Both the position numbers and the translations under genes were made by a program. DNA of 64,000 bases from positions 74,124 to 138,123 of IMG/VR virus record IMGVR_UViG_3300045988_151219. The stretch is one strand, 5' to 3'. Position 1 is the first letter of the stretch, and each line of letters starts with the position of its first letter. The stretch comes from a virus. The notes beneath the pieces were generated by a model. It made no database searches. It was not told the DNA's origin and was given only the letters and a program-made list of their open reading frames with translations. Positions 13,666-60,015 of the stretch are shown here, in pieces.

Positions 13666-14664
13666 TTATGTTTTTATCTCTCCTTTCTCCAGTTCAACAA
13701 TATGTTTCCCTATATCATATACTACGTTTACTGTTACAGCATTTCCTGCTTGTTTATATAATTGTTCAGTGCTATTACATAATAAAGCTTTATGAAACTG
13801 CTCGTCAGTAAACCCTTGTAGCCCCCAGCACTCCTTTGGAGTAAGCTTTCTTATATAACACTTAACTCCATTAGATAATAAAACTCCGCTTATCTCACCT
13901 TTATGGTTGCTTGTTCCTTTATTGCAACCAGTCGTAAGACATCTTGCATATTCAGTTAGTTTTACTTCTTTCTCTGAAAGGTCTATGAATTGACAGTATA
14001 AACCTGTTTTTGCTCCTATACCTCCACCTTGCGATGTTATAGTACAAGCCAAATCTAAATTATATACTCTATCTCCTTGAGAACCATTTATAATTTCTTT
14101 AAGAGTTCTCTCACTTTTTCTTGTGACAGGAAGTAGCGACTGTCCTTTGTGTTCTCCATTATATCCCGCAATGTACACTCGCTCACGGCTTTGCGGAACT
14201 CCGTAGGCTTTTGAGTTGTAAACACGCCATTCAAGACTGTACCCTCTCGCAGCCATTTCAGACAAGACCTGGAAGAATCCCCAGCCATCATCAATTGAAA
14301 GCAAGTTCTTAACGTTTTCAGCGATAAGCCATTTGGGTCTATTTCCGCCTGCTTCGTCAAGAAGCCGCATAATCTCATAAAATAAGCCACTTCTGGTTCC
14401 TCGTTTGATACCTGCTTGTTTCCCTGCAATGGATACATCTTGGCATGGAAACCCGAAGGTCCATATGTCGGCTTTTGGTATTTTGTCGCCTCTAACTTTT
14501 TGGACATCATTTGCAAACCATAATCCCTCCGTGTTATATAAAGCTCTATAACTTCTTTGAGCATATTTATTAAATTCACACCAGCCAATACATTTCATTC
14601 CCGCCTTCTCAAACCCTGAATGAAATCCACCTATGCCAGCGAAAAAGTCAATAAAAGTTAGCAT
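13666..14664 (-). CDS. dcm: DNA cytosine-5 methyltransferase
   Basis: FIDFFAGIGGF (I), GFPCQDVS (IV), ENVKNL (VI), QSRERVYI (VIII), GNAVTVNV (X). Confidence 0.95.
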   Translation of the reverse strand: MLTFIDFFAGIGGFHSGFEKAGMKCIGWCEFNKYAQRSYRALYNTEGLWFANDVQKVRGDKIPKADIWTFGFPCQDVSIAGKQAGIKRGTRSGLFYEIMRLLDEAGGNRPKWLIAENVKNLLSIDDGWGFFQVLSEMAARGYSLEWRVYNSKAYGVPQSRERVYIAGYNGEHKGQSLLPVTRKSERTLKEIINGSQGDRVYNLDLACTITSQGGGIGAKTGLYCQFIDLSEKEVKLTEYARCLTTGCNKGTSNHKGEISGVLLSNGVKCYIRKLTPKECWGLQGFTDEQFHKALLCNSTEQLYKQAGNAVTVNVVYDIGKHIVELEKGEIKT

Positions 14665-15505: not shown

Positions 15506-15548
15506 TATTGTTTTCCTTTCTTCTACAACACATTTAATTTACAAGTAT

Positions 15549-15577
15549 ATTATAAAAGAAATTGTAATATATGTCAA
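15549..15577 (-). promoter_or_regulatory. Class A sigma-70 consensus promoter
   Basis: Minus strand TTGACA TATATTACAATTTCTTT TATAAT: -35 at 15572-15577, 17-nt spacer, -10 at 15549-15554. Confidence 0.75.
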
Positions 15578-16248
15578 GCTTTATTTTCTATAATAAATCC
15601 GCTCCATTGGTCAGCATGTTGCAGTAATAATGCTAAAGGACATTCTTTACAAGCATACTCTTTGTTAGCATTAACATACTGTCCGTCATGTATTAAGATA
15701 GCCTGAAATTCTTCCGGTGTAAGTTTAAAATGCCACGTTAAATAATAAAGAGACCTGTGAGGAACAGACATAAACGGATAAAGCTTAGTGTTATATTGAT
15801 AACCAGCTTTCCAATCAGGTTTCTCTAAATATAAAGGATTATGAGGATTACCTGCTTTACCAAAATCATGAAATAACCCGCAAAAAGCTACGGAACTTCT
15901 GAATACATTAGGCATAGAATCTTTATGTGCTTCATAAAGATTTAAAGCTGTTTCAGCTACATTAAGTGAATGTTCTAAAAGACCAAATTTCCTATTTAAA
16001 TGATACTTAGTAGAAGCTGGAGCTGTAAGAAATCCGAAATCTTTAATCACCTCTGTAAAGAAAATTTTAAAACTGTCGATAAATTGAGAATCTCTTCCTT
16101 CTAAAATAACGTTAATAATTTTAGGCAATCTTCTATCAAATAACTCCGGATTTTCTTCCGGATAGTTTTTACTTGGCTTATCATCACTAAAATGTAAGTC
16201 GTCTAAAATGTCTTGATAATTAGTATACATCATCTTCCAACTCCTCAA
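15574..16248 (-). CDS. HD-domain phosphohydrolase
   Basis: LLEHSLNVAETAL ... FCGLFHDFGKAG (H...HD pattern). Confidence 0.7.
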   Translation of the reverse strand: MRSWKMMYTNYQDILDDLHFSDDKPSKNYPEENPELFDRRLPKIINVILEGRDSQFIDSFKIFFTEVIKDFGFLTAPASTKYHLNRKFGLLEHSLNVAETALNLYEAHKDSMPNVFRSSVAFCGLFHDFGKAGNPHNPLYLEKPDWKAGYQYNTKLYPFMSVPHRSLYYLTWHFKLTPEEFQAILIHDGQYVNANKEYACKECPLALLLQHADQWSGFIIENKA

Positions 16249-22233: not shown

Positions 22234-22473
22234 TTAGTTTTTATCTCTATATAATTTTAAATAATCAGAAACTAATTCACGCATATTTTCTGCAATATGA
22301 TGAATGAAATCACTATCAGAAACATTATCAGGAATATTATATTTCCACTCACCATCTTTATTGTATCTGTTTCGCAAGTCATTTAATACTTGAAAGACTT
22401 TCTCGTCTGATATAATAATTTCCGATTTATTCTCCATCTCGTGATTTATTGATATTAGTAATAAGCTCTTCAA
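22234..22473 (-). CDS. Hypothetical protein
   Basis: 79-aa ORF. Confidence 0.4.
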   Translation of the reverse strand: MKSLLLISINHEMENKSEIIISDEKVFQVLNDLRNRYNKDGEWKYNIPDNVSDSDFIHHIAENMRELVSDYLKLYRDKN

Positions 22474-23137
22474 TAGGTGTATTCATAACTTCATCAACAT
22501 CACCCTTATCAGCGTAAGTCACTCTTGAATCCCACTCTTCAATGGGGTCATCGTACTTATTAATAACTTCTTTGAAAGCTTCTGAAATATAACCATTGTT
22601 TACACTTTTAGTAGGTTCTACTTCTTCATCTATAGTTTTAAATGAAAATTCCTTTTTCCCTACTTTAGAGAAGTAATCCCCTATACGTGTATAAGCAAAA
22701 GCTCCTAAAGGCTGTTTACTGCCTATGGCTCCAACAAAAGAGTCCTCTCTTGTAGAAATTAATTTAGCTTTTCCTTCGCTGTCAACAAATAAAATAGAAT
22801 CCTGTTTGTACTTAATACCTAATTTCAATCCTAATTTAAATAAAGTGTTTTCTTCTTCTTTAGGTGCAAAGACTACTAAAGAATCTTCATCTACTACTAC
22901 AGATGAACCATCTTCTTTTTTCTCTACATAGCTTCCTTTAATTTTGTTGAACCCATAGTTAGCTGCTCGAAAATATCTTTGCAGCTCTTTAAAGTTCTTT
23001 CTATTTTCTTGAGGTGTGTTTTCATTCCTATTTGCGGAAATGAACAACAACACATCCCCACGGTCAAAATGCTGCTTAATTCTTCCTAAACTTGCTTCGC
23101 ATATCTTCATATTGTTGAACGTATCTTTTAATGACAT
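22427..23137 (-). CDS. Tandem paralog 3 of an MSLKxTF...EASLGR...FISANRNE family
   Basis: Collinear similarity to the two upstream copies along the whole length. Confidence 0.6.
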   Translation of the reverse strand: MSLKDTFNNMKICEASLGRIKQHFDRGDVLLFISANRNENTPQENRKNFKELQRYFRAANYGFNKIKGSYVEKKEDGSSVVVDEDSLVVFAPKEEENTLFKLGLKLGIKYKQDSILFVDSEGKAKLISTREDSFVGAIGSKQPLGAFAYTRIGDYFSKVGKKEFSFKTIDEEVEPTKSVNNGYISEAFKEVINKYDDPIEEWDSRVTYADKGDVDEVMNTPIEELITNINKSRDGE

Positions 23138-23765
23138 AATAATTACCTCTTTCTTTATTTAACCTTTTTGTACTTCTATTATCCCATTCAGTTAATCCGT
23201 CTTCATAACTATTTATAACAGACCTAAATGCTTCTTGTAGAAAGCCCCGCATATATTGTCTTTCAGGCTCTACTGACTCCAGAATACTGAATGAGAATTG
23301 CTTCTTTCCAATAGTAGAAAAATAATCTACCACTCTTGTATAAATAAACCTACCTAATTCTATAGCAGAATCAGTTAGTAAATTATAGTATTTTGCTTTT
23401 CCTTCACTATTTATAAAGAGAATAGCTTCTTGTTTATATCTTCTTCCTAACTGTTTACCTAATCTTAATAAAGTTATTTCATCTTTAGGTTTTCCATAGA
23501 CTATAAGAGAATCCTCTTCTACAGTAACTGTAGTACCATCTTCTCTATTTTCTACATAGCTTCCTTTGATTTTATTATACCCAAAATTAGAATCATAAAT
23601 ATAATGCTGTAACTCTTTAAAAGCTTTCTTGTTTTCCTGGATTGTACTTTCATTCCGATTAGCTGAAATAAATAAAATACAATCTCCATTATCGTAATGC
23701 TGCTTTAGTCTACCTAAACTTGCTTCATATAATTTTATATTGCTGAAAGTTTCTTTTAAAGACAT
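23076..23765 (-). CDS. Tandem paralog 2 of the same family
   Basis: The first 22 aa are nearly identical to copy 1. The C-terminal tail overlaps the start of copy 3 by 62 nt. Confidence 0.6.
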   Translation of the reverse strand: MSLKETFSNIKLYEASLGRLKQHYDNGDCILFISANRNESTIQENKKAFKELQHYIYDSNFGYNKIKGSYVENREDGTTVTVEEDSLIVYGKPKDEITLLRLGKQLGRRYKQEAILFINSEGKAKYYNLLTDSAIELGRFIYTRVVDYFSTIGKKQFSFSILESVEPERQYMRGFLQEAFRSVINSYEDGLTEWDNRSTKRLNKERGNYYVIKRYVQQYEDMRSKFRKN

Positions 23766-23766
23766 T

Positions 23767-24468
23767 TTACTCTTTCCTATTTTGTTCCACTATTTCTTTT
23801 ATTGCTTTCTCAAAAGAAGTTTTGCATATTTCTTTAACTTCAAAATCTTCCTCAACACTCCTATCCCATACTGCTAAAGGATTAGTTGAAGACTCCAATA
23901 ACTCTATAAAAGATTCTGAAAGTAACCTATCACCTAAGTTATGTTTAGGTTTTACTTCTTCTACTGTCTTAAAAGTAAAATGTCTCTTTCCTATCTTAGA
24001 AAAATAATCCCCTATCTTTATAGGACTAAATTTACCTACTGATTTCTTAGAACCTAAACTACCTATCTTAGTTCCTTCTTTAGTAGCGTAAAATTGAGCT
24101 TCTTTCTTACTATTGATAAAAAGTATAGAGTCCTGATTAAATCTTATTCCTAACTGGATACCTAATTTAAATAAGATATTTTCTTTATCTGCCGGAGCAA
24201 ATACTACTAAAGAATTTTCCGAAACAGGAACTTTTTCTCCATTACTGTTTTCTTCTACGTAATGTCCTTCTATCTTATTATAGCCAAAATTAGCTATCTT
24301 TACATAACGTTGAAGCTCTTTATAATTCTTCTTATTCTCTTTTTCTGAATTTTCATTTCTGTTTGCACTTATAAAGAGTAAACAATCTCCTTTTTCTAAG
24401 TGCTGCATAAGCCTTCCTAAGCTTGCTTCATATAATTTTATATTGCTGAAAGTTTCTTTTAAAGACAT
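23767..24468 (-). CDS. Tandem paralog 1 of the same family
   Basis: MSLKETFSNIKLYEASLGRL...LLFISANRNEN...FGYNKIEGHYVE...SLVVFAP. Confidence 0.6.
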   Translation of the reverse strand: MSLKETFSNIKLYEASLGRLMQHLEKGDCLLFISANRNENSEKENKKNYKELQRYVKIANFGYNKIEGHYVEENSNGEKVPVSENSLVVFAPADKENILFKLGIQLGIRFNQDSILFINSKKEAQFYATKEGTKIGSLGSKKSVGKFSPIKIGDYFSKIGKRHFTFKTVEEVKPKHNLGDRLLSESFIELLESSTNPLAVWDRSVEEDFEVKEICKTSFEKAIKEIVEQNRKE

Positions 24469-28151: not shown

Positions 28152-28180
28152 ATTATAAAAGAGATTGTAATTTATGTCAA
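28152..28180 (-). promoter_or_regulatory. Class A sigma-70 consensus promoter
   Basis: TTGACA TAAATTACAATCTCTTT TATAAT: -35 at 28175-28180, -10 at 28152-28157. Confidence 0.75.
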
Positions 28181-28596
28181 GTCTTTTTAAAACTTTTCGT
28201 AATTGGAATACTACAATCTACAATCAATACGTTATGATTATCCACTTTCTCTAAAGAACAATAGAATTTTACTGAAAGAGAATCTTTGGGAACTATGTCC
28301 TGCATAGCCTTAACTACACTTGTACAAGATATAATAGATTGTGTAATTTCTTTATTTTTATTATATTTATAAGCTACTTTTAAATCTCCGTTTTGAACTT
28401 CATCTATATTATTCAAAAAAATAATAGCTACTTGTTCTTTTTCTTTATTGACTAATACTCTTACTCTATACGGAAATCCTAAAGATTGAAGTAACCTTTT
28501 CTTGATATAAAAGTACGGTGTCTTAGCCATTGTTAAAGTAACTGTATTGACATCTATATTATATTCTTTTCTTTTTTTCTTCTCTTCGCTGCTCAT
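28177..28596 (-). CDS. Hypothetical protein (possible AbrB/SpoVT-like fold), paralog of 43823-44185
   Basis: SLGFPYRVRVLVNKEKEQVAIIFL versus LSGPYKVKALVNPQTNQVVIFKV in the other ORF. Confidence 0.4.
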   Translation of the reverse strand: MSSEEKKKRKEYNIDVNTVTLTMAKTPYFYIKKRLLQSLGFPYRVRVLVNKEKEQVAIIFLNNIDEVQNGDLKVAYKYNKNKEITQSIISCTSVVKAMQDIVPKDSLSVKFYCSLEKVDNHNVLIVDCSIPITKSFKKT

Positions 28597-28822: not shown

Positions 28823-28850
28823 ATTTCCTCCTCTTTTGAATATAGGAATA

Positions 28851-28880
28851 GAGTCTTGAAAGTGCTAATTTTCAAGACTC
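28851..28880 (-). terminator. 11-bp hairpin closing the tRNA/ncRNA transcription unit
   Basis: gagtcttgaaa-(8 nt)-tttcaagactc. On the minus strand it is followed by a U-rich stretch, UAUUCCUAUAUUC. Confidence 0.45.
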
Positions 28881-29126
28881 ACCCTACTTTATCTACAACT
28901 ATTATTAAGCTGTAAATAAATTTTGGTATAACGTATGTAGAAAGGAAGCTCGAAACTACGGGCTACTTGTCTAACTCTTATACCGGAAGTCAAACAAGCT
29001 CGTTATGAGGGGTCGTGAAGAATTGCACTTCACTTAATGATACTATCTACCCCAGGTTTTCCTAATGTAATATAGTTCTCCCCTTTTTGAAAAGATAAAA
29101 TCTTATACTTTTACTACATCAGGAAA
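28881..29126 (-). ncRNA. ORF-free structured segment downstream of tRNA-Leu (candidate ncRNA or tRNA-like remnant)
   Basis: Nested helices GGGGT...ACCCC enclosing GTGAAG-aattgca-CTTCAC. A 7-bp acceptor-like pair GGTATAA/TTATACC (28925-28984) encloses GTAG...CTAC. No ORF is present. Confidence 0.3.
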
Positions 29127-29213
29127 TGGTGCGAAAGGTGGGACTTGAACCCACACGGTATTTCTACCAGGAGATTTTAAGTCTCCAGCGTATTCCGATT
29201 CCGCCACTCTCGC
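29127..29213 (-). tRNA. trnL-UAA: tRNA-Leu(UAA), type II, CCA encoded
   Basis: Manual cloverleaf: acceptor GCGAGAG/CTTTCGC, anticodon arm GGAGA-CTTAAAA-TCTCC, long variable arm, T arm GTGGG-TTCAAGT-CCCAC, ACCA end. Confidence 0.9.
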
Positions 29214-29384
29214 ATATAGACAAGCTTTTACAGAACCAGCTATTGCTGCCTTGTATGAACAATGGGAGAAAGCAGCAATATGAAGAAAAGTGTTTAGGGA
29301 TATTTTCTTAGCTGTAAGTAAAAGTATGAGGAGCGTCTGTAAAAGCCCATCTTATATAAGCAGTTTAATGACTTACTTAGGTCA
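29214..29384 (-). ncRNA. Structured 171-nt spacer between tRNA-Ser and tRNA-Leu (candidate ncRNA)
   Basis: Perfect 11-bp long-range helix GCUUUUACAGA/UCUGUAAAAGC enclosing a perfect 9-bp helix UAUUGCUGC/GCAGCAAUA, plus hairpin ATGAC-ttacttag-GTCAT. Confidence 0.3.
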
Positions 29385-29475
29385 TGGCGGATAGAGTGAG
29401 ATTCGAACTCACGCATGCATCTCTGCACCTAACGGTTTTCAAGACCGTCCTCTTGAGCCTCTTGAGTATCTATCC
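29385..29475 (-). tRNA. trnS-UGA: tRNA-Ser(UGA), type II, CCA encoded
   Basis: Acceptor GGATAGA/TCTATCC, anticodon arm ACGGT-CTTGAAA-ACCGT, long variable arm, T arm GTGAG-TTCGAAT-CTCAC, GCCA end. Confidence 0.9.
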
Positions 29476-29478
29476 ATG

Positions 29479-29554
29479 TGGTGGAAGTATCAGGACTTGA
29501 ACCTGCATCTGACGCTTATAAGGCGTCTGCTCTAACCGGTTGAGCTATACCTCC
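29479..29554 (-). tRNA. trnI-UAU: tRNA-Ile(UAU), CCA encoded
   Basis: Acceptor GGAGGTA/TACTTCC, D arm AGCTCAACCGGTTAGAGC, anticodon arm GACGC-CTTATAA-GCGTC, T arm GCAGG-TTCAAGT-CCTGA (the last pair is not perfect), ACCA end. Confidence 0.85.
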
Positions 29555-29579
29555 ACATAAGAGAAGAAATCACTACTCT

Positions 29580-29589
29580 TATATTATAC
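29580..29589 (-). promoter_or_regulatory. Class B promoter-like motif upstream of the tRNA cluster (ATAGTATAATATAAGAG)
   Basis: tatattatac lies 26 nt upstream of the tRNA-Ile 5' end. No RBS or ORF intervenes, which supports a promoter role. Confidence 0.55.
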
Positions 29590-29624
29590 TATTTCTTCTA
29601 TAGAATTTTCCAATAATTTTTCTT

Positions 29625-29888
29625 TTAATAAGCATCTAACATATATGCTATATTACCCAGACTTTCTATAAAGCCAGAATATTCATGTATATCGGTTAAA
29701 TCATGAATTTCTTTACCTGGAATTTTTAGAAATATATGATTCTTATTCTCTCTACTCTCAAGAACTAAGTATGGAAAATCTTTTTCCTATACTTTACTTG
29801 ATATGAAAAATCCATTTCTGTTCTCAATTATATTAAATTCATATGGACTACTGTTAAGAACAGCTTGTATTTCTTTCTGGCTAATCAT
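29625..29888 (-). pseudogene. 88-codon ORF interrupted by one in-frame TAG (codon 34, 29787-29789)
   Basis: Own translation: MISQKEIQAVLNSSPYEFNIIENRNGFFISSKV*EKDFPYLVLESRENKNHIFLKIPGKEIHDLTDIHEYSGFIESLGNIAYMLDAY*. The frame was checked codon by codon. Confidence 0.5.
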
Positions 29889-29902
29889 AATATACTCTTT
29901 CT

Positions 29903-40651: not shown

Positions 40652-40703
40652 GATAGTGTCCTTTCTCTTAACAGTAAATATTACTAATATATTTTATGTC
40701 TGT

Positions 40704-40732
40704 ATTATAATATTTATTGTAATATTTGTCAA
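40704..40732 (-). promoter_or_regulatory. Class A sigma-70 consensus promoter
   Basis: TTGACA AATATTACAATAAATAT TATAAT: -35 at 40727-40732, -10 at 40704-40709. Confidence 0.7.
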
Positions 40733-40738
40733 GTGCTT

Positions 40739-42523
40739 TTAACATTTTTCATAAGCTTCACACCAGTTACTTCCGAAAGCCCACTCATACTTAAATTTGA
40801 AATCTTTATATAAATCTGAAAAATCAAATAAGCTGTCTAAAAGCTCCTCTGCTTGTTTGTCTGTATAAGTCTCCGGAACTTCTATCAAGTGACTGTCAAA
40901 AACTCCCAACACCCATTGAATGTCTTTAATATCTTTTGTTCTTCTAACTACCATCTTAAAGAAATCAGCACATGAAGACTGTATAGCTGTGTTAAAAGCT
41001 CTTCGCTCATCAGCAGACTTTTCAGATTCATCAAAAGAATTTATGTTTACTAAAGTACGTCTTCTGCCAATTATCGTTTCTGTATATCCGTTCTTCCTGG
41101 TTTTTGCTATGACTTCATCTCTGAATTTAGCTAATTCCGGAAATAATGAGAAATATTTATTAACTAATTTCTGCCCATCTTCGTATGATATATTTAACGC
41201 TCTTGCAGTAGCTGCTCCGGCAGAACCAAAAATAGTGCTGAAAGAAACAACTTTAGACACATTTCTTTCTTCTTTAGAGATTTCTGTTTTACCTAATAAT
41301 CTTTTGGCTATCTCGGTGTGTAAGTCTACTCCTTTATTAAACCAGTCTAAAAGAGTTTTACAGTTAGAAAGATACGCTGCTATATAAAGTTCCGCTGATT
41401 TCCAGTCCGCATATAAGAATTTATTTCCTTTGTGAGGAATTATACTTTTTCTAAATTCAGCCGGATATGCTGAAACAATAGGGTCTTTTACATATACACG
41501 ACTTGAAGCAGTTCCATACCCAACTGATTCAAATACCGGATGAAAAGCTCCATCATCAGAAACCATTGAAGTTACTTTCTTTAAAGAGTTCTTGACTGAA
41601 AGATTATGTTTCAACTCTAAGATATTCGTTATTATTTTAGAGTTTTCAGTCTCTCCTTTATTAGCTAAGTTTTCAGAAAGCATATTTAAAGATTGTGCAT
41701 TGAATGACGGTTTCCCTTTAGGCGATTTTAAAGGTATTTCAAATTTCTTCTCATCTACTAAAAAACTATTTAAATCAGAAAAAGCGTTAGGTCTGAAAGT
41801 TTCTTTCCCTATCTTTTTACAGAAATTATTTAAGTCTATATCATACTTCTTGTTGACTGTATTTTCTATTTCAGTAAACTTGTCCGCATCAAAAAGTATT
41901 CCTCTTCCACTTGATTTAATAACTTCTGATATAAAGTCAAATTCAAGCTGCAAGACTTTTTTCTGCTGTATTATATTGTCTTTGTAATATTCCATTATCC
42001 TAAACGGTAAGACAGAATCTAAAGCGGAATATTGTAAAACCAGCTTATTTTCTATATCATATCTAAATTTTCCATCTTCATCAGGTGTAAAAATGTTTTC
42101 AAACTTTCGGATAAGAGAAGCTTTTTCCGGATATAAGTTAATAAAAATGTCTTTTAAAGCGTTTAACTCTAATTGAAAAACTCTTGCCATGATAAAAGTA
42201 TCAAAGTAAATAGGAACGGCTACTCCAAATTGGTCATATATTCTTGACAAATCAAATTGAAGGTTATGCCCTACTGCTTTAATACTTGATAAAAAATCTT
42301 TCAGAATAGATTTCTCAATATCAGAAAGTTCTGTATATGTGTCTGTTTTATTTGAATATGTTTTTATCGGTATAACTAAAGAAATATCTTCCTGCAAGTT
42401 ATATAAAGAAAGTAAAGTTATCGGAGATTTAAAATCCAAACTTTCTGTCTCTATGTCTAATCCTAAATTTTTATTCTTCCAGGTAGAAGGTATCTCACTC
42501 GGTAAAGCTAATTTTATCTGCAT
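40739..42523 (-). CDS. Family-A DNA polymerase, divergent paralog (3'-5' exo + pol)
   Basis: Exo I LGLDIETESLDF, Exo II VGHNLQFDLSRI, Exo III YSALDSV. Motif A LYADWKSAELYIAAY, motif B RNVSKVVSFSTIFGS, motif C LGVFDSHLIEV (FDS in place of HDE). Confidence 0.75.
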   Translation of the reverse strand: MQIKLALPSEIPSTWKNKNLGLDIETESLDFKSPITLLSLYNLQEDISLVIPIKTYSNKTDTYTELSDIEKSILKDFLSSIKAVGHNLQFDLSRIYDQFGVAVPIYFDTFIMARVFQLELNALKDIFINLYPEKASLIRKFENIFTPDEDGKFRYDIENKLVLQYSALDSVLPFRIMEYYKDNIIQQKKVLQLEFDFISEVIKSSGRGILFDADKFTEIENTVNKKYDIDLNNFCKKIGKETFRPNAFSDLNSFLVDEKKFEIPLKSPKGKPSFNAQSLNMLSENLANKGETENSKIITNILELKHNLSVKNSLKKVTSMVSDDGAFHPVFESVGYGTASSRVYVKDPIVSAYPAEFRKSIIPHKGNKFLYADWKSAELYIAAYLSNCKTLLDWFNKGVDLHTEIAKRLLGKTEISKEERNVSKVVSFSTIFGSAGAATARALNISYEDGQKLVNKYFSLFPELAKFRDEVIAKTRKNGYTETIIGRRRTLVNINSFDESEKSADERRAFNTAIQSSCADFFKMVVRRTKDIKDIQWVLGVFDSHLIEVPETYTDKQAEELLDSLFDFSDLYKDFKFKYEWAFGSNWCEAYEKC

Positions 42524-44963: not shown

Positions 44964-45003
44964 TTTTGTTTCCTCACTTATAATATAACTCTTTTATGAC
45001 TAT

Positions 45004-45032
45004 ATTATAAAATAGATTGTAATATATGTCAA
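45004..45032 (-). promoter_or_regulatory. Class A sigma-70 consensus promoter
   Basis: TTGACA TATATTACAATCTATTT TATAAT: -35 at 45027-45032, -10 at 45004-45009. Confidence 0.75.
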
Positions 45033-45046
45033 GTATTTTTTACAAC

Positions 45047-45079
45047 AAAAAAGAAAAAGCAGGGAGGAACTGCTTTTTC
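45047..45079 (-). terminator. Rho-independent terminator
   Basis: Minus strand GAAAAAGCAG-TTCCTCC-CTGCTTTTTC followed by TTTTTT, directly upstream of the class A promoter. Confidence 0.8.
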
Positions 45080-50967: not shown

Positions 50968-51430
50968 CTGTTTCTTCTCCTTTTATCACGTCAATAATGT
51001 TAATTAAAAACTGGATGTGTGAACCTATATTGGCTTTATATTCCTTGAACCTGTTTAAATTCTCTTTATTATTATACCAAATAGGTGAAATAGTGTCTGT
51101 GTTGTAAGTACCAAACTCTTCTTCTAAAGCTCTTCTCTCATCAAGAGAAAGCTTATTCCAAATATTATTAAAGAGTTTTTCAACATTGTACTTTATAATA
51201 TTCTTCTTAAAGAAGTCTACCGGATGGTACACTTTCCTCTCTGAAAAGCAAAACAGAGTATCTCCGTCCTTATTGTTATAAAGCTTTGCTGCCGGCGTAT
51301 GATAATTTTCATGAAAAGGACAATAAACTTTTCCCTCATATGAGTTTACGTTATATTGCAGAAAAGAATTTAATAAAAACGGAATATTAATCTTTCTATT
51401 AATAACGTATTCCTTAAACGCCTCTTCCAT
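50960..51430 (-). CDS. Primase zinc-finger-like protein (degenerate CHC2)
   Basis: YCPFHENYHTPAAKLYNNKDGDTLFCFSERKVYHPVDFF parallels the DnaG pattern CPFHxExTPSFxV...CFGCG, but the last Cys pair is incomplete. Confidence 0.4.
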   Translation of the reverse strand: MEEAFKEYVINRKINIPFLLNSFLQYNVNSYEGKVYCPFHENYHTPAAKLYNNKDGDTLFCFSERKVYHPVDFFKKNIIKYNVEKLFNNIWNKLSLDERRALEEEFGTYNTDTISPIWYNNKENLNRFKEYKANIGSHIQFLINIIDVIKGEETDV

Positions 51431-51751: not shown

Positions 51752-51767
51752 TTATTTCTATATCTGT

Positions 51768-51796
51768 ATTATAAAAGAAGTTGTAAAATATGTCAA
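51768..51796 (-). promoter_or_regulatory. Class A sigma-70 consensus promoter
   Basis: TTGACA TATTTTACAACTTCTTT TATAAT: -35 at 51791-51796, -10 at 51768-51773. Confidence 0.75.
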
Positions 51797-52407
51797 GCTT
51801 TTTCTTCAACTTTTTTATGATGGTCTTCATATATTAAATCATAAAATTTTGGGAAGTTTTTAAGGTATTCACAAAAGGCTCTCCATTCAGGAAGCTTATG
51901 ATTTTTCCGCTGATTGTATATTGTTTTCAGCTGACGATAATTAGTCGTCATGCGTGCTGTGTATGAGAATCCTGTCGGAATATTATAAAGTAATTTAAGC
52001 ATTTTTTCTTCGGACGGATTCTCTGCATATTCTTTCTGTAATTTCTTTAATAAATTTTTTGCCTCTTCTGTAACGTAACTGTTACAGTTTTCATCTATCT
52101 TCAAAGCGTTTATTTTGTGTATAGTCGATTGTGAAGTAACAAAATCAATAAAATGATACCGTTGTAATTCTACCCACATCTTGATTGAACAGTGTAAATC
52201 AAACTGTGCAATAATTCCGTTGAGGTAATTATCTTCTCCCGAATTAGGTGCTTGGTGTGCTAATACTCTGGCTCTCTTAATATCGGAATCTTTAGGCGTA
52301 TCCAAATCTCTATTAACTTCTTCCGCCATAGAATATCCGGAAGCTACAATAGATTCACTAAGTCCAAAGACTCTTAAATTAGATATGATATTTTCAAATT
52401 CTTTCAT
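51793..52407 (-). CDS. ThyX-fold (flavin-dependent thymidylate synthase-like) protein with altered signature
   Basis: GEDNYLNGIIAQFDLHCSIKMWVELQRYHFIDFVTSQSTIH parallels HETPFEHxxFTFxVxxPIFVxRQWxRHRxxSxxxxSxRY, and TARMTTNYRQLKTIYNQRKNHKLPEWRAF parallels the NxRSLxxFxxLRxxxxAQxEI helix. RHR is replaced by RYH. Confidence 0.5.
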   Translation of the reverse strand: MKEFENIISNLRVFGLSESIVASGYSMAEEVNRDLDTPKDSDIKRARVLAHQAPNSGEDNYLNGIIAQFDLHCSIKMWVELQRYHFIDFVTSQSTIHKINALKIDENCNSYVTEEAKNLLKKLQKEYAENPSEEKMLKLLYNIPTGFSYTARMTTNYRQLKTIYNQRKNHKLPEWRAFCEYLKNFPKFYDLIYEDHHKKVEEKA

Positions 52408-54368: not shown

Positions 54369-55472
54369 TCATATAACTAAATGTAAATGTTTCTTCGCTC
54401 TCGTAACAGCTGTATAAAGCAGCCTGTCTCTATCAACCCAGTTAGCATACTTGGGAATGATAGCTACTATGTCTTCTGCTTCGGAACCTTGGTATTTCCA
54501 AACAGTAACCGCATATCCAAAATCAAATGTAGCCCTATTCATATCCCATTCATCGTCAAAAGGTTCTTGATAGAAGTTAGCAAAATCAGTTTTTAAATCT
54601 CGGCTATGATGTGTATAATCCGGCTTGAATCTCAAGAAGCCTAATAAGCCTTTGCAGACTTTAGCCATCTTACATTCTCCGGTCATTCCGTTTACAGGCC
54701 TTGCTCCCCCTATCTCCGTATTCCACATATTCTTAGTGAGTACGACTTTCTCCCCCGCTTGGGGAATTAGTCCACTAAATCCTAATTTCTGTCTGATATA
54801 CCGGTTGAGACTATTCCTGTCTTTGTTTGTAGTAACTAATATCTGGTCTGTCTTTAAACAGGTTTCTATAAAGTCTTTATTACCTTTTATATCCTGCCTT
54901 GTTAAAACTTCAAAGTCTTCCCCTTTTTCAGGCGTGATTGTCTCTCTATTCCTAATTTTTGTAGCTAATCTTACTATACCTGATTCTCCGGCTTGTCTTA
55001 TAATCTCGGTCAAGATAACGTCCGGATGGTCAAACAAGTGAGGGTCATCTCCAATAGGCGGAAGCTGGAAAGGGTCTCCAACAAATATTATCTTGTGAGG
55101 AAATTTCAGAAGGTCTTTAAAGATTTCTTTGTCTACCATAGAAGCTTCGTCTACTACTATTACTTCGCAATGCCTGATAGGCATCTTCTTTAAAGCAAAG
55201 ATTAATTCTTCCCCTTCTTTGTCTAACAAAGAATATTGGTAGTGGTGTATAGTAATCGCCGGAATACCTTTTGCGGATAAGACTGAAACTGAACGCCCTG
55301 TAGGACCTAAGAAACCTACTAAGCCTTTTTCTTTATTCTTAAAGAACTCTGAAATAATAGTAGATTTTCCTGTACCAGCATACCCTGCCAATACAAATAT
55401 TTTTCTATCCGATTGTAAGAATTTTTCCAGCTTCTCTAACGCCTCTTGCTGGGAATCAGTGAGATTTAACAT
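54369..55472 (-). CDS. SF1 RecD/Dda/Pif1-like helicase
   Basis: LAGYAGTGKSTII, VIVVDEASMV, FVGDPFQLPPI, VWKYQGSE, LYTAVTRAKKHLHLV. Confidence 0.85.
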   Translation of the reverse strand: MLNLTDSQQEALEKLEKFLQSDRKIFVLAGYAGTGKSTIISEFFKNKEKGLVGFLGPTGRSVSVLSAKGIPAITIHHYQYSLLDKEGEELIFALKKMPIRHCEVIVVDEASMVDKEIFKDLLKFPHKIIFVGDPFQLPPIGDDPHLFDHPDVILTEIIRQAGESGIVRLATKIRNRETITPEKGEDFEVLTRQDIKGNKDFIETCLKTDQILVTTNKDRNSLNRYIRQKLGFSGLIPQAGEKVVLTKNMWNTEIGGARPVNGMTGECKMAKVCKGLLGFLRFKPDYTHHSRDLKTDFANFYQEPFDDEWDMNRATFDFGYAVTVWKYQGSEAEDIVAIIPKYANWVDRDRLLYTAVTRAKKHLHLVI

Positions 55473-55737
55473 GTATTATCAACTCGTCTCCCGCTTGTAA
55501 ATTCCCAACGTCAGATATATTATTATCTTTCTTAATCTGATAAACCAATTCACGGACGTCTTCATTCTCCTTAACAATATCTTTCGCTATGTCATACAGA
55601 TTGTCTCCAGCTTTCACCGTATAATGATACGTGATAACTTCTTCTTTCGGAAAATCTGTCACAGTATAACCAGCTATAAATACAATTAAGATAAATAATA
55701 CAAGCTTTTTCATTTCTTTCTTCTCCTCTATAAACAT
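55456..55737 (-). CDS. Membrane-anchored LysM-domain protein
   Basis: TM helix LVLFILIVFIAGY, then YTVKAGDNLYDIAKDI...NLQAGDELII. Confidence 0.7.
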   Translation of the reverse strand: MFIEEKKEMKKLVLFILIVFIAGYTVTDFPKEEVITYHYTVKAGDNLYDIAKDIVKENEDVRELVYQIKKDNNISDVGNLQAGDELIIHVKSH

Positions 55738-55758
55738 AATACATTTCTTTATGTCTAT

Positions 55759-55787
55759 ATTATAAAAGAAGTTGTAAAATATGTCAA
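55759..55787 (-). promoter_or_regulatory. Class A sigma-70 consensus promoter
   Basis: TTGACA TATTTTACAACTTCTTT TATAAT: -35 at 55782-55787, -10 at 55759-55764; identical to the 51.8-kb copy. Confidence 0.75.
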
Positions 55788-55821
55788 ATGTTTTTATTTA
55801 TAAATTATATTATAAACTACG

Positions 55822-56358
55822 TTACATATTATTCTGCCACTCTCTCAAGATAACTTTCTTAGGCTGTGAATACGTGAGTCTTCTTGCTCTGTTATATATC
55901 TTATCTGAATTAAGCTGTGCTACAAAGATTGATTCAAAAAAGTTACCTAAGCTAAGTCTTGCCAAATCTGTTTCTGTACCGGTATAGTCTGTCGATTTAA
56001 TTTTGAAAGTAAGAACATCAGGCTCATTCTCTTCCCAATAAAGGTAATAATATACTTCTCCTAATTTAAGCTCCGGCTTCTTCTCATAAAAGAAACACCC
56101 TTTGAAAAATTCTTCCAAATCTTTTGTATCAAAGTCTTTCGCATAATATAATTCCCTTGTTACCGAATTAATTGATTTCCTATAAAATCCTCTCGGTTGG
56201 AATAAAAATGTTCCTTTAAAATTTGTCTGATTAAATACATGATACGGTGTAGAAAATTTAAGCTGGTGTTTATATACAAATCTGGATGTAATTGTCTCGT
56301 CTAAATTCTCCCTCGCAAAATTAACTACCCTGTCCGGCTCTTTGTAATACGGTTTCAT
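55822..56358 (-). CDS. Hypothetical protein
   Basis: 178-aa ORF. Confidence 0.5.
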   Translation of the reverse strand: MKPYYKEPDRVVNFARENLDETITSRFVYKHQLKFSTPYHVFNQTNFKGTFLFQPRGFYRKSINSVTRELYYAKDFDTKDLEEFFKGCFFYEKKPELKLGEVYYYLYWEENEPDVLTFKIKSTDYTGTETDLARLSLGNFFESIFVAQLNSDKIYNRARRLTYSQPKKVILREWQNNM

Positions 56359-56404
56359 TTCTTTCTCCTTTTAATAACAATAAATTCTTTCAAATAACTC
56401 TCTT

Positions 56405-56414
56405 TATATTATAC
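56405..56414 (-). promoter_or_regulatory. Class B promoter-like motif (ATAGTATAATATAAAGAGAG)
   Basis: tatattatac lies directly downstream of terminator 56423-56453 and 47 nt upstream of ATG 56358. Confidence 0.5.
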
Positions 56415-56422
56415 TATAAATT

Positions 56423-56453
56423 AAAAAACTGATACTGTAGATTTTAGTATCAG
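56423..56453 (-). terminator. Rho-independent terminator
   Basis: Minus strand CTGATACT-AAAATCTAC-AGTATCAG followed by TTTTTT. Confidence 0.8.
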
Positions 56454-57310
56454 ATATTATATACGACAAATCCATCTATTCATTTCTCTCTCTTTTGACA
56501 AAACTTAATAAACATACTGACTTTATTCTTTAAACAGCCAATAGTTAAATAAGTACCTGTCTTATAGTATATTTACCTCGTCTTGATAAGGCTATTTACT
56601 ACATAAACGTGACTAAGGCTTATGCAGCTATACTATCTTATAAATAGATGTACTTTCTTTTATGAATTTACCTTGGTGCTTAGTACCTCTAACGTTATAA
56701 TAACTTCTCAAGAGTGCTGCACAGGTAGCGTCCTCTATGAGGTTAAAAGCTGTGGCACATTCCTTGTTATCGTTATCAATGTTATTAGTACGTTGCGTTA
56801 TATGCTCTTCTTCTAAAGCTCTTTGATAAATTCATCATTATTCAGTTGTAACTGCTAAATTCAGCGAATTTAGCTATTTTTGAAATGGATATTTCTGATG
56901 TACGAAATCAGATTCTACCGGCCCTTAGCCTATAACCTTGTCTGCGACAGTTACCACTAAGCTCTTATAAAACACGCTCTCTGAATTATAAGAGGAACTT
57001 ACTACTCTCTTTTATTTTCTACTCTTAGTTTACTTTTCGTTACGCTTGTTTTACTTGCCCTGGTTTTTCACTCTGGCTGGTATTTTGCTTTAGTCTCTAC
57101 TTTTTCTATTTTATTTCTCGTTGACTGCAGATACCTGGGGTCACAACTCCCTTGCATCTCCTCTTAGGCTCGTCACTCCCTAAGACGGCTGGACTACTGG
57201 TTTAACCTTGCTACTGTGTACGTTAGTACAAAGCTGTCTCTCGACATTTAAAGCAGGAACGCCCGCGGCTTTTGTCTTCGTCCGTTTATCTCTATATTTT
57301 ATATATTACA
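56454..57310 (-). ncRNA. ORF-poor ~850-nt region with a GC-rich structured core (candidate large ncRNA; class unknown)
   Basis: No ATG/GTG/TTG-started ORF of 60 aa or more on the minus strand. GC is about 50-55% at 57120-57290 against a ~30% background. Perfect hairpins at 56962-56994 (9 bp) and 56854-56874 (9 bp), plus TCTTAGG/CCTAAGA at ~57155-57180. The region lies between the SNF2 stop and a strong terminator. Confidence 0.4.
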
Positions 57311-59059
57311 TCATTTTCTTCTCTTTGTCAAATTCCACAGCATTGAGTTTTTGAGAAACTTCTTGTACTTTATTACCTCTTCTCCTTTCATTGTCCGACT
57401 GAACTTGGGAATATTCTTTAAACCCTCTTGTCCGAATATCTTGTTTATAAGCTCTTTATGCTGCTCTATCAATAAGGTTTTATATTCATCTATCGTGCCT
57501 TTAGCTACCAGGGTGTATATGTTCTGTGTACTGAACTTGCTGTCTATCCTGCATATTCTACCTATACTTTGTATTATCGTATATAAGGAAAAAGGCGTGT
57601 CATAGAATATTATATTGTTCGCTTTCTGCAAATTGATAGACTCTGAACCTGCTTTTGTGATTATAATGATACTTTTAGGTATTATCTGCTCCGCCTGGCG
57701 TCTCGCCTCTTCGCTCTGCTTCCCTGTTATCGACATAAGCTTACTGTATTGTACGCTTGAACGTTTGATGTGATACTCTAAATAACTGAATACCTCGTCA
57801 TAGTCTGTATATATTATTACAGACTCGTTTTTATGTATAATGTGTGATACTAGTGTTATTAAATACCTTATCTTCGTTGATACTCTGTTATCATTCTTGA
57901 TATTAAATATGTTTGTAGCAGAGTCATACTGCGGGCTTCTCGCCCCATCCACTACCATCTGGAGCGAATGCAGCCTTGCGGCAAAGGCTTGTGGGTTCTC
58001 GCTTGTATATTCTTTCTCTTTGCTCATTAAACCTTTTGAGGCTATGTTATAAAGTCCACCCTCTTCTTCTGTGATGTCGAATTTTATGCCCTTGAAGTTT
58101 AATTTGTACTCTTTCCCTCTGGAGATGTAACACCTCTTGAGTAAAAGCTTTAAACTCTCTAAGTTCTTGTAACCTGCTATCTCTCGAACTTTCCGCACTC
58201 CTCGCCTTGTCCTGATGACCCGCTCGTGGTAAATCACAAATTTATTCTCGAAATCCCTCCTGCTGTCACTTAAATATCCTGGACGTAAAAAGTCCATGAT
58301 TGAATATACTGATATAATGTTGTTCAGTAAAGGGGTCGCTGTTAAACCATAGACTACACTAAAGCTACTACGTAAAGATTTTAGCTCTCTGGTTAAGTTA
58401 CTGTCCGGATTTCCTATCTTGTGTACTTCGTCACAAATTAGTAAAATCTTGACAGGTCGCTTGATACCTGGTTTAAATTTAATCTTCTGTATGTTATTGA
58501 TTAGATTCTTTAGCGGCGTGAGATTACTATAGTTCATTAGAAATATTCTTCCGCTTTTATGAGTCGTTGTACTTTCGTTGGTAGTTCTAATGTGATATGG
58601 TAATCTTACCCTCTTTAGCTCTTTCTTGAATGCGTTGGTCGCTGATTTAGGACATAATATTATTGTTATTATCTGTGGGATTCTCTCTTCTTTTATAATA
58701 TCTTTGTTCTTTAGTTCGTTCTGCTGGCTCGTATTATTCTTTATATTTGCTTTGTTGTTTTCTTTTATTACTATATGGTCTTTATTGACTGTATCGTTAT
58801 TAATGTGTGTGTTTTGTGTACCTGGTTTAAGGATATTTTGTGGTACGTTTATCCGTTCTGATTTTATCAGCTTTTCTTTTTCTCTCTGGGCGTATTTTTG
58901 GTCAAACTTACTCATGATTAAATAAGCCAATGAAAGTGCTTGTAACGTCTTGCCCATTCCTGGCTTATCCCCTAATACAGAATTGGGATGGTTATATAAA
59001 AATTCTACTCCCTCTTCCTGCTCTTTTGTAAGTTTGTATGAATCATTTACTTCGTACAT
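57311..59059 (-). CDS. SNF2-family helicase/translocase
   Basis: LGDKPGMGKTLQAL (I), LLICDEVHKIGN (II), GLTATPLLNN (III), QSIGRICRIDS (VI), and an N/K-rich insertion after motif I. Confidence 0.85.
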   Translation of the reverse strand: MYEVNDSYKLTKEQEEGVEFLYNHPNSVLGDKPGMGKTLQALSLAYLIMSKFDQKYAQREKEKLIKSERINVPQNILKPGTQNTHINNDTVNKDHIVIKENNKANIKNNTSQQNELKNKDIIKEERIPQIITIILCPKSATNAFKKELKRVRLPYHIRTTNESTTTHKSGRIFLMNYSNLTPLKNLINNIQKIKFKPGIKRPVKILLICDEVHKIGNPDSNLTRELKSLRSSFSVVYGLTATPLLNNIISVYSIMDFLRPGYLSDSRRDFENKFVIYHERVIRTRRGVRKVREIAGYKNLESLKLLLKRCYISRGKEYKLNFKGIKFDITEEEGGLYNIASKGLMSKEKEYTSENPQAFAARLHSLQMVVDGARSPQYDSATNIFNIKNDNRVSTKIRYLITLVSHIIHKNESVIIYTDYDEVFSYLEYHIKRSSVQYSKLMSITGKQSEEARRQAEQIIPKSIIIITKAGSESINLQKANNIIFYDTPFSLYTIIQSIGRICRIDSKFSTQNIYTLVAKGTIDEYKTLLIEQHKELINKIFGQEGLKNIPKFSRTMKGEEVIKYKKFLKNSMLWNLTKRRK

Positions 59060-60015
59060 CAGAAAAATCCATTTCTACTTAAAAATTGACCCCATCTCTC
59101 AAGACCGAAATAGGAAATAACTCTGTGTGCATAGTCTTTACCCACATTGACTTTGTATAAGTTAGGATAGTAATTATCTCGTAACTTCATCATCTGATAA
59201 TTAAATTTCAATGTTTCCTTGTTTTCTTTTATCTTATTATTATACTGGCTTTCAACGAAATTATTCTCAAAAATTTCTTCAAAAGTTTCTACACTCTCTG
59301 CTATCTCCTTAGCTTTCTTATGCGGAAACCTCGGTATTCCTTTTAGAGAATCAGAAGCATCTCCTACAATAGCTCTATAAATGGGAAGCTTAGAAGGTGA
59401 AATCCGTAAGAATTTTTTATATAATGAATTTTCTTCTTCTATTGTAGTAAACCTATCCCAATCAATTATCTCCGGCTCCCCTTTAGTGACTTTCCGAACA
59501 ATAGAAACTCTATTGTCTTCTGTGAGTGCTTGCATTAAATCGTTATCCCCTGAATTGATAAAGACTTTTGCTAAATCAATTTTCCTGGAAAGGTTATATA
59601 AATTATCATCTGCTTCTTTATCTTCATTATATGAAAAATAAACGTTTGAATGTATTGAAGCTAATTTTACTATATATGGAATATCATTAAAGAAGTTGTA
59701 TTCAAGCTCGGCTCTTCCTTCTTTATATGAACGTCCTGTTGATTCAGTTAAGATTATTCTGTCTTTCGGTACACCATCTCTTACTATTACTACTGCTGTA
59801 TTTGGATATCCAGGCATAGATAAAAAAGACTGTATAGCTTGCAGTGTACCATATAAATGCCCATTAGGAAGCTTTAATCCAGCCGGCGTTATTGTATGAA
59901 AATTTTTAAAGACATAAAAATTCCTATGCAGCTGCCATGATAAATCCATAACAACAACATAGTCATATGTGTTTAAATATGATGGTAAAAATTCTTGTAT
60001 GTGTATTTGACCCAT
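59059..60015 (-). CDS. 5'-3' exonuclease / flap endonuclease (FEN, T4 RNase H/T5 D15-like)
   Basis: VVVMDLSWQLHRNFY, VVIVRDG, EADDNLYNL, INSGDNDLMQAL, IVGDASDSLKGIP. Confidence 0.85.
   Translation of the reverse strand: MGQIHIQEFLPSYLNTYDYVVVMDLSWQLHRNFYVFKNFHTITPAGLKLPNGHLYGTLQAIQSFLSMPGYPNTAVVIVRDGVPKDRIILTESTGRSYKEGRAELEYNFFNDIPYIVKLASIHSNVYFSYNEDKEADDNLYNLSRKIDLAKVFINSGDNDLMQALTEDNRVSIVRKVTKGEPEIIDWDRFTTIEEENSLYKKFLRISPSKLPIYRAIVGDASDSLKGIPRFPHKKAKEIAESVETFEEIFENNFVESQYNNKIKENKETLKFNYQMMKLRDNYYPNLYKVNVGKDYAHRVISYFGLERWGQFLSRNGFF

Follow-up and report, generated by a model that had tools for sequence, protein, structure and literature searches.

The window analysed here, a stretch of 64,000 nucleotides (nt) from IMG/VR virus record IMGVR_UViG_3300045988_151219, is part of a 138-kb metagenomic contig of phage origin and holds a gene-free region between an SNF2-family helicase gene and the gene of a 178-amino-acid (aa) orphan protein. 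It is quite likely that this region makes a functional structured RNA, and, with somewhat more reserve, we consider it probable from its sequence that the region is the gene for a modular structured non-coding RNA (ncRNA) of ~875 nt, lying on the same strand as its neighbours and carrying an arm complementary to the SNF2 start that could switch the helicase off. Four computed properties carry this reading, namely sequence constraint, pair-preserving substitution, a bias towards one strand and the complementarity itself. The initial annotation of the window had proposed a large structured ncRNA with its own terminator, and conservation, the pattern of substitutions, the asymmetry between strands and the placement of promoter and terminator signals all argue for that proposal. 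The RNA is presented as a candidate because the evidence comes from sequences only and the phylogenetic depth is shallow.

Sequence constraint in the gene-free region

The 952 nt from 56359 to 57310, between the SNF2 stop (57311) and the start of the next gene (56358), constitute the second largest gap without open reading frames (ORFs) in the window. The region had been described as the only long gene-less stretch, which holds if tRNAs are counted as genes, the largest ORF-free gap (28823-29902) being occupied by three tRNA genes; in size it comes second to that gap. No ORF of at least 30 aa was found on the minus strand between these limits, and TAA, TAG and TGA each interrupt all three minus-strand frames. 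Stop-codon recoding, considered as a way to rescue a gene, therefore cannot explain the gap and was ruled out.

Relatives of the phage were located by searching with the SNF2 protein, which returned five clusters at 90-95% identity followed by a drop to 52% and to ≤39%. A gene-free gap of ~870-970 nt between SNF2 and the 178-aa gene is kept in the close relatives L003, L004, L005 (=L006), L007 and L019, and partial copies were also recovered from L009 and L010. With 612 four-fold-degenerate sites of six flanking genes as neutral yardstick (mean pairwise difference 0.195 ± 0.011), the structured domains of the region evolve at 28-65% of the four-fold-degenerate rate, and a purine-rich linker between them evolves at about the neutral rate (Table 1). 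This indicated that the structured parts are under purifying selection and that the linker drifts neutrally.

The constraint is not that of a protein gene. Substitutions across the relatives showed no three-base periodicity, most of the indels among them have a length not divisible by three, neither strand has an open frame conserved among them, and the open frames of the region gave no Pfam or PHROG match; a conserved frame, codon periodicity and protein homologues, as would mark a protein gene or pseudogene, were thus all missing from the region. Constraint of this kind argues against a decayed gene, which had been suspected from a 67-codon frame without a start codon. The frame does exist, and it is truncated, shifted or absent in relatives, which weakens the suspicion. 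A wider version of the same idea, in which the region is a decayed gene or neutral spacer and its folds are chance features of AT-rich sequence, could draw on that frame, on the divergence of domains 2 and 3, which is little below that of third codon positions, and on a 19/19 same-sense match to the coding region at 51116-51134. We hold it to be very unlikely, since the rate in all structured domains is well below neutral, substitutions avoid pairs or keep them paired, the 67-codon frame is neither conserved nor matched by a protein family, and the score of the 19-mer is unexceptional, being reached by 14 of the 72 control segments. Both this 19-mer match and a recurring 13-mer, UCCUGCUUUAAAU, were set aside as being at chance level.

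Fold, strand and transcription signals

RNAalifold was run on five and then on six sequences, and it predicted ~220 pairs in ~30 helices, with 97.5-97.7% of the pair cells standard. Six pairs were changed on both sides, as compared with 1.8 ± 1.0 in shuffles (0/500) and 0-2 in slid-partner controls. The alifold structure is fitted to the alignment, so the test was repeated with the structure predicted from the window sequence alone and with a permutation that keeps shared ancestry. Under these conditions, the substitutions of the relatives touched 110 pairs vs. 153 ± 11 expected, and a standard pair was left in 48% of the touched cases vs. 28 ± 4% expected (0/1000). Pairs are thus maintained by compensatory or wobble substitutions beyond chance, in a test whose power is limited by the use of six close sequences.

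The GC-rich 5' core corresponds to a rise in GC content already noted at 57120-57290, which was corroborated by our figures (50.3% vs. 32.9% in the window, with 50-52% in the tRNAs). Only 0.18% of 160-nt windows reach 48% GC, and they fall in four places of the 64 kb. Another of these places, 14110-14339, lies within the ORF at 13666-14664, which is overlapped by a second long ORF on the same strand (14088-14588). Within the core, the tetraloop of a short hairpin reads GAGA, GCAA or GCGA in the relatives and fits GNRA every time, and the closing pair of this hairpin covaries (C-G to A-U). In L003 the adjacent peripheral hairpin is shorter, in L007 it is altered, and in L019 another stem, of 6 base pairs (bp), takes its place; a hairpin is retained throughout. 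Next to the core, the A-rich tract pointed out in the initial annotation is real (Table 1); it is conserved less than any other part of the region, and ~75 nt of it are deleted in L004.

Among the local helices listed in that annotation, CTCTTATAA/TTATAAGAG at 56962-56994 and GCTAAATTC/GAATTTAGC at 56854-56874 were found again, as was TCTTAGG/CCTAAGA, located at 57162-57185; the palindrome GGTTAAACC exists as an inverted repeat, of merely 4+4 bases around a single one. Compensatory changes affect hairpins 11 and 14 as well as the stem of the terminator. Domain 2 displays two of them, from UGUC/GACA to UGCC/GGCA and from GCUAAAUUC/GAAUUUAGC to CUCUAAAUU/UUUUAGAG, and in domain 3 several pairs changed from G-C to G.U and from U-A to U.G. 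The terminal helix is made up of pairs that are almost invariant, so it is predicted and not proven; in L009 a U replaces the C opposite G (A2 alignment, column 11), which would give G.U if the unsequenced 5' strand of L009 is unchanged.

Several measures assign the fold to the minus strand. The fold z-score against dinucleotide shuffles was -5.9 for the minus strand and -1.9 for the plus strand, and the structure conservation index (SCI) of the region was 0.83 vs. 0.73, the minus strand being higher in every domain. The minus strand has 109 G.U cells as against 7 for the plus strand, and variable pairs were kept in 27/46 vs. 9/46 cases, both counts being biased towards minus by the use of the minus-strand-predicted structure. 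The orientation of the genes also favours the minus strand, on which all gene-like ORFs of at least 90 aa in the window are encoded.

Transcription signals flank the region on the same strand. The putative promoter, a sigma-70-type site whose activity we infer from its TTGACA-17-TAATAT arrangement, extends over the final codons of SNF2 and its stop, has a hexamer score of 10/12, and its -35 hexamer is invariant in all relatives. At the other end, the terminator announced in the initial annotation was confirmed as a stem (56429-56453) that leads into a T6 run on the minus strand, and in L019 this stem has a compensatory change from C-G to U-A. The region therefore has at sequence level its own promoter-like site and its own intrinsic terminator, in the same orientation and kept in relatives, and no internal promoter or terminator was found that would divide the RNA in two.

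A near-identical family of promoter-like elements, CTTGACATATWTTACAAYTTCTTTTATAATATAGA, was observed elsewhere on the minus strand (55759-55787, 51767-51807, 44980-45049, 15538-15597, 28152-28186, and 40675-40740). These elements have a perfect TTGACA-17-TATAAT arrangement with conservation of the spacer and of the first transcribed bases too, and they may be promoters regulated together, possibly early ones, or a site to which a regulator binds. The promoter-like site of the RNA is not a member of this family.

The arm complementary to the SNF2 start

At 24/25 positions the segment UUCGUACAUCAGAAAUAUCCAUUUC (56882-56906) complements the message at 59051-59075, and flanking A-U and G.U pairs extend the duplex to 27 bp. 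This was the strongest inverted match, scoring 42.1 bits in comparison with 28.9 ± 3.0 (next best 36.2) for 72 control segments of the window. The energy of the duplex was -43.3 kcal/mol, vs. -21.7 ± 4.6 (next best -31.9) over 87 gene start regions, and no other antisense target in the window stood out after SNF2. In all five genomes tested the SNF2 start was the top antisense match. The duplex is perfect in L003 (24/24, blastn), the sole non-identity in L007 is a G.U position, and the two changes found on the RNA side of the arm in relatives are both C to U opposite G, still pairing. The loop of the arm has an unpaired probability of 0.88, and its first four bases, UUCG, conform to YUNR, a motif characteristic of antisense recognition loops. 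The arm thus presents extended complementarity to a start codon from an accessible loop, and the duplex is also present in the minimum free energy fold of a 2.7-kb read-through transcript. That the pairing with the SNF2 start region is functional is suggested by these sequence features, and we put it at somewhat under an even chance.

In the mechanism that we infer for transcription, RNA ends and regulatory effect, the RNA would be transcribed from the sigma-70-like promoter over the SNF2 stop codon to the intrinsic terminator at 56429-56453, and it would double as the 3' end of exonuclease-SNF2 read-through transcripts. Its modules would be a near-invariant GC-rich 5' core with a GNRA-capped hairpin, a drifting purine-rich linker and three AT-rich 3' domains. 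A 3' hairpin would offer the YUNR-type loop, and loop and 3' flank together could form a duplex of 25-27 bp that covers the start codon of SNF2. As a concrete activity, repression of the SNF2 helicase message, antisense or long-range, or processing of that message would be the most likely, and the 5' core may carry a second function, such as protein binding, stability or RNA assembly.

No terminator was found between SNF2 and the RNA region, and therefore read-through transcripts of exonuclease and SNF2 would end in the same sequence and carry both partners of the duplex. This opens a purely cis-acting interpretation, with the region as a long structured 3' untranslated region of the exonuclease-SNF2 operon, or as an 870-nt leader whose terminator gates the 178-aa gene. 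It would account for the missing terminator after SNF2, for the formation of the SNF2-start duplex in the read-through fold, for the position of the terminator 63 nt upstream of the 178-aa gene start, for the weakness of that gene's own promoter-like sites (9/12), and for the joint occurrence of RNA and orphan gene in this clade only. We judge it unlikely all the same, given the conserved TTGACA-17-TAATAT site exactly at the 5' end, the distance of the most constrained part, the 5' core, from the orphan gene (~700 nt) and from the SNF2 start (~1.8 kb), and the lack, among the pairings supported by variation, of an alternative antiterminator pairing.

Several observations weigh against an ncRNA gene with an antisense arm. 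A U.U mismatch is present in the duplex of the window, L004, L005 and L019, and the RNA has no compensating change; a T/A polymorphism at 59062-59066 (penultimate codon of the exonuclease, Phe/Tyr) falls inside the duplex, with the RNA fitting the Tyr (A) allele in every case. Roughly half of the arm is part of helices under constraint in any event, the SNF2 complementarity could be the relic of an inverted duplication, and an arm of 25 nt leaves the length of an 875-nt RNA unexplained. As regards the fold, most of the 5' core is invariant, and the two alifold runs disagree on its inner fold; the fold of the core is therefore unproven, just parts of it being supported. Domains 2 and 3 are constrained just moderately. 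Six full-length and two partial copies were available, with flanking proteins all at least 90% identical, and among such close relatives events are few and covariation is sparse, so that an R-scape-type test would lack power. In addition, the pair-preservation test was positive on the plus strand too (41% vs. 24%), as expected for complementary helices, and for this reason the strand call rests on G.U pairs, fold energy and transcription signals.

Genomic setting and known RNAs

On the minus strand the gene order is 5'-3' exonuclease, SNF2, the gene-free stretch, the 178-aa orphan, a small LysM protein, a PIF1-like helicase, DnaB and, further on, DNA polymerase A, so that the stretch sits inside a replication module (Table 1). 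The DNA polymerase and DnaB have ~25% identity to their best GenBank phage matches, and the phage is an uncultured lineage of ~140 kb, far from cultured phages. SNF2 is 582-619 aa long in close relatives, and after its Walker A motif it has an Asn/Lys-rich stretch of ~75-100 residues (approximately residues 55-130) which is missing from more distant homologues (470-515 aa; these align only from about residue 132). Elsewhere in the window, three adjacent genes of ~230 aa each (22427-24468) share 68-73% nucleotide identity over ~350-380 nt and look like tandem paralogues.

Table 1. Positions of the candidate RNA, its predicted parts, its proposed target and the surrounding genes. Coordinates are those of the window unless a relative is named; SCI, structure conservation index.
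Feature	Position	Strand	Description	Mean pairwise difference
Sigma-70-type promoter-like site	57303..57331	-	TTGACA 57331-57326, 17-nt spacer, TAATAT 57308-57303
Proposed ncRNA transcript, ~875 nt	56422..57296	-	5' end placed from the putative promoter (within ~4 nt); 3' end at the terminator U-tract
Terminal helix, 5' strand	57285..57297	-	Partner 56459-56470; RNAalifold; would join the RNA ends
GC-rich 5' core	57130..57284	-	50-52% GC; predicted multi-branch domain and two hairpins; nearly invariant	0.054
GNRA-tetraloop hairpin	57235..57246	-	UGUC-GAGA-GACA in the window
Variable-length peripheral hairpin	57213..57234	-
Purine-rich linker, unstructured	56995..57129	-	54% A and 75% purine on the RNA strand; sequence and length vary; SCI 0.08	0.206 (about neutral)
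Domain 2	56853..56994	-	Four hairpins (56962-56994, 56924-56961, 56888-56919, 56853-56876); SCI 0.93	0.127
Putative antisense arm	56882..56908	-	7-nt loop UUCGUAC (begins YUNR), 3' stem strand and downstream nt
Domain 3, long irregular hairpin arm, ~195 nt	56652..56846	-	SCI 0.81 minus, 0.58 plus	0.104
Domain 4, branched, ~180 nt	56473..56650	-	Closed by a 10-bp helix; SCI 0.90 minus, 0.76 plus	0.071
Intrinsic terminator	56422..56453	-	CUGAUAC...GUAUCAG, then U6
Proposed target	59049..59075	-	Exonuclease stop/SNF2 start junction; AUG 59059-59057
5'-3' exonuclease gene	59059-60015	-
SNF2-family helicase gene	57311-59059	-	Stop at 57311
Orphan gene, 178 aa	55822-56358	-	Directly downstream of the RNA region
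Slot, window	55456-57310		RNA, 178-aa orphan, LysM
Slot, L008	2928-4243		Leucine-rich-repeat protein (303 aa, unrelated) and LysM-like protein
Slot, L017; L018	9512-10075; 9525-10768		Hydrolase_2 cell-wall hydrolase

The 178-aa orphan and the RNA region co-occur in 6/6 full-length contigs of the clade. The protein had as sole match its own cluster (97% identity) among 1.84 billion representative proteins and no match in Pfam or PHROG, and its single-sequence AlphaFold model was unusable (predicted local distance difference test score, pLDDT, of 33). About two dozen variants of the orphan protein represent the clade, on contigs of ≤147 kb (Logan, ENA, NCBI, JGI). The slot between SNF2 and the PIF1-like helicase is a hot spot of accessory genes in a replication module of otherwise conserved order. 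In the 52% relative L008 it holds an unrelated leucine-rich-repeat gene, and in the 38-39% relatives L017 and L018, which have the same gene order, it is filled by a Hydrolase_2 gene with no non-coding gap. The slot is therefore variable, and RNA and orphan form a clade-specific cassette and not a conserved replication part.

Searches beyond the clade agreed with this picture. No homologue of the region was obtained by blastn against 50,697 GenBank phage records; exact core patterns gave two chance 18-mer matches in coding genes and no copy in IMG/VR, and exact-pattern scans of JGI metagenomes and GTDB genomes gave no copy. A covariance model of the 5' core matched the known copies alone and missed Staphylococcus phage K, L001, L008, L017 and L018. 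As far as these sequence collections reach, the distribution of the RNA region is one narrow phage clade.

The position inside a replication module is what a replication origin might have, whether iteron-based or primed by transcription in the manner of T4 and ColE1, and an origin with CTACTCT iterons had been raised in the initial annotation. The region is flanked by exonuclease and SNF2 in one direction and by the PIF1-like, DnaB and DNA polymerase genes in the other, it has a promoter-like site, and the ~130-nt purine-rich tract could in our view favour R-loops. Against this, the region has no iteron family, just short repeats in two copies; CTACTCT occurs twice, in the least conserved stretch, and cumulative GC skew is monotonic, with no inflection. 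The distant phages L008, L017 and L018 carry a protein gene in the slot, with the same order of replication genes and no non-coding gap, and the purine tract is neutral in rate and largely deleted in L004. An origin is therefore a quite improbable explanation, and the strand-specific conservation of G.U pairs points to an RNA. The ColE1 RNA II and T4 oriF/oriG transcripts resemble the candidate as promoter-driven, partly structured ncRNAs near replication functions that have a purine-rich stretch; they differ from it in that the candidate has no conserved position in relatives of the same gene order, an unconstrained purine tract and no skew signal.

Affiliation to GOLLD or ROOL had also been put forward. 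GOLLD usually lies beside phage tRNA islands, and the tRNAs of the window are all at 29127-29554, ~27 kb from the candidate RNA. The gap at 28823-29902 carries tRNA-Leu(TAA), tRNA-Ser(TGA) and tRNA-Ile(TAT) with ~300-350 nt of non-coding sequence on each side; such tRNA-flanking gaps are the usual type of site for GOLLD and ROOL, and Rfam shows nothing in this one beyond the tRNAs. ARAGORN found no tRNA or tmRNA in the candidate region. A cmscan search of the whole window against Rfam 15 (4227 families) returned only the three tRNAs at gathering score, and with permissive filters (E ≤ 10) the interval 56300-57450 gave three sub-threshold small-RNA matches, taken as noise, and none to GOLLD or ROOL. 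As Rfam 15 gave no match, the RNA does not belong to GOLLD, ROOL, OLE, the introns, RNase P, tmRNA, 6S or another curated family. Resemblance to rRNA, hinted by GCAAGGTTAAA and CCAGTAGTCC, was rejected as well, the best match to an Escherichia coli rrn operon being a 13-mer of 26 bits that 8/100 shuffles equalled.

A divergent member of one of these families (GOLLD, ROOL, OLE, group I/II intron, RNase P, tmRNA, 6S) would be in keeping with the GOLLD/ROOL-like size, the encoding by a phage and the disordered internal linker (PMC12286853); set against the cmscan result over all 4227 families and the distance of 27 kb from the tRNA island, its probability is close to negligible. GOLLD and ROOL consist of structured regions joined by a disordered linker, and in GOLLD one half is highly conserved and the other less so (PMC12286853). 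The candidate RNA is like GOLLD (RF01998) and ROOL (RF03087) in being phage-encoded and ~0.6-0.9 kb long, with many helices and a disordered linker, and it shares with GOLLD the division into a conserved and a less conserved half. It differs from both in having no covariance-model match, a place away from the tRNA island, a distribution in one narrow clade, and a putative antisense arm directed to the neighbour gene.

Long ncRNAs that are abundant, lnc001 and lnc002, were found by RNA sequencing in Staphylococcus phage K (Kayvirus) (PMC9241854). Common to both cases are low-GC phages of ~140 kb with Gram-positive-type hosts and ncRNAs of similar order of length, 0.6-1.15 kb in phage K. However, no blastn similarity was detected with the GenBank phage set and the 5'-core model misses the phage K loci, and the phage K RNAs flank tRNA genes whereas the RNA described here does not.

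The closest parallels for the arm are antisense RNAs of ~70-100 nt directed to translation starts, such as P22 sar, P1/P7 c4, P4 CI RNA and the plasmid CopA-type RNAs with YUNR loops. The candidate shares with them a hairpin loop that begins with YUNR and extended complementarity across a start codon; as with c4 and CI, regulator and target share a strand and a gene cluster. In contrast to these RNAs, the arm takes up a small part of an 875-nt RNA and would act on a target encoded upstream of it.

To our knowledge, very few bacterial or phage ncRNAs of more than 500 nt have been described, and their functions are mostly open. The candidate might be the first member of a family of ~0.9-kb phage RNAs not described before, in which an active core (protein or ligand binding, catalysis or self-assembly) would be joined by a disordered linker to a 3' antisense arm that silences or processes the SNF2 message, in trans or by fold-back; so specific a proposal is tentative, and we rather doubt it than expect it. 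What the region most likely represents, judging from the comparisons made here, is a large structured phage RNA that is new and of narrow distribution and whose proposed link to the adjacent helicase can be tested. Each new large ncRNA has so far been structurally surprising, as with GOLLD and ROOL, which form RNA-only cages. Unlike these two, the candidate provides a concrete functional handle, an arm of 25-27 nt on the start codon of the neighbouring helicase, and, if the reading is true, a large ornate RNA would be tied to the control of a replication/recombination enzyme.

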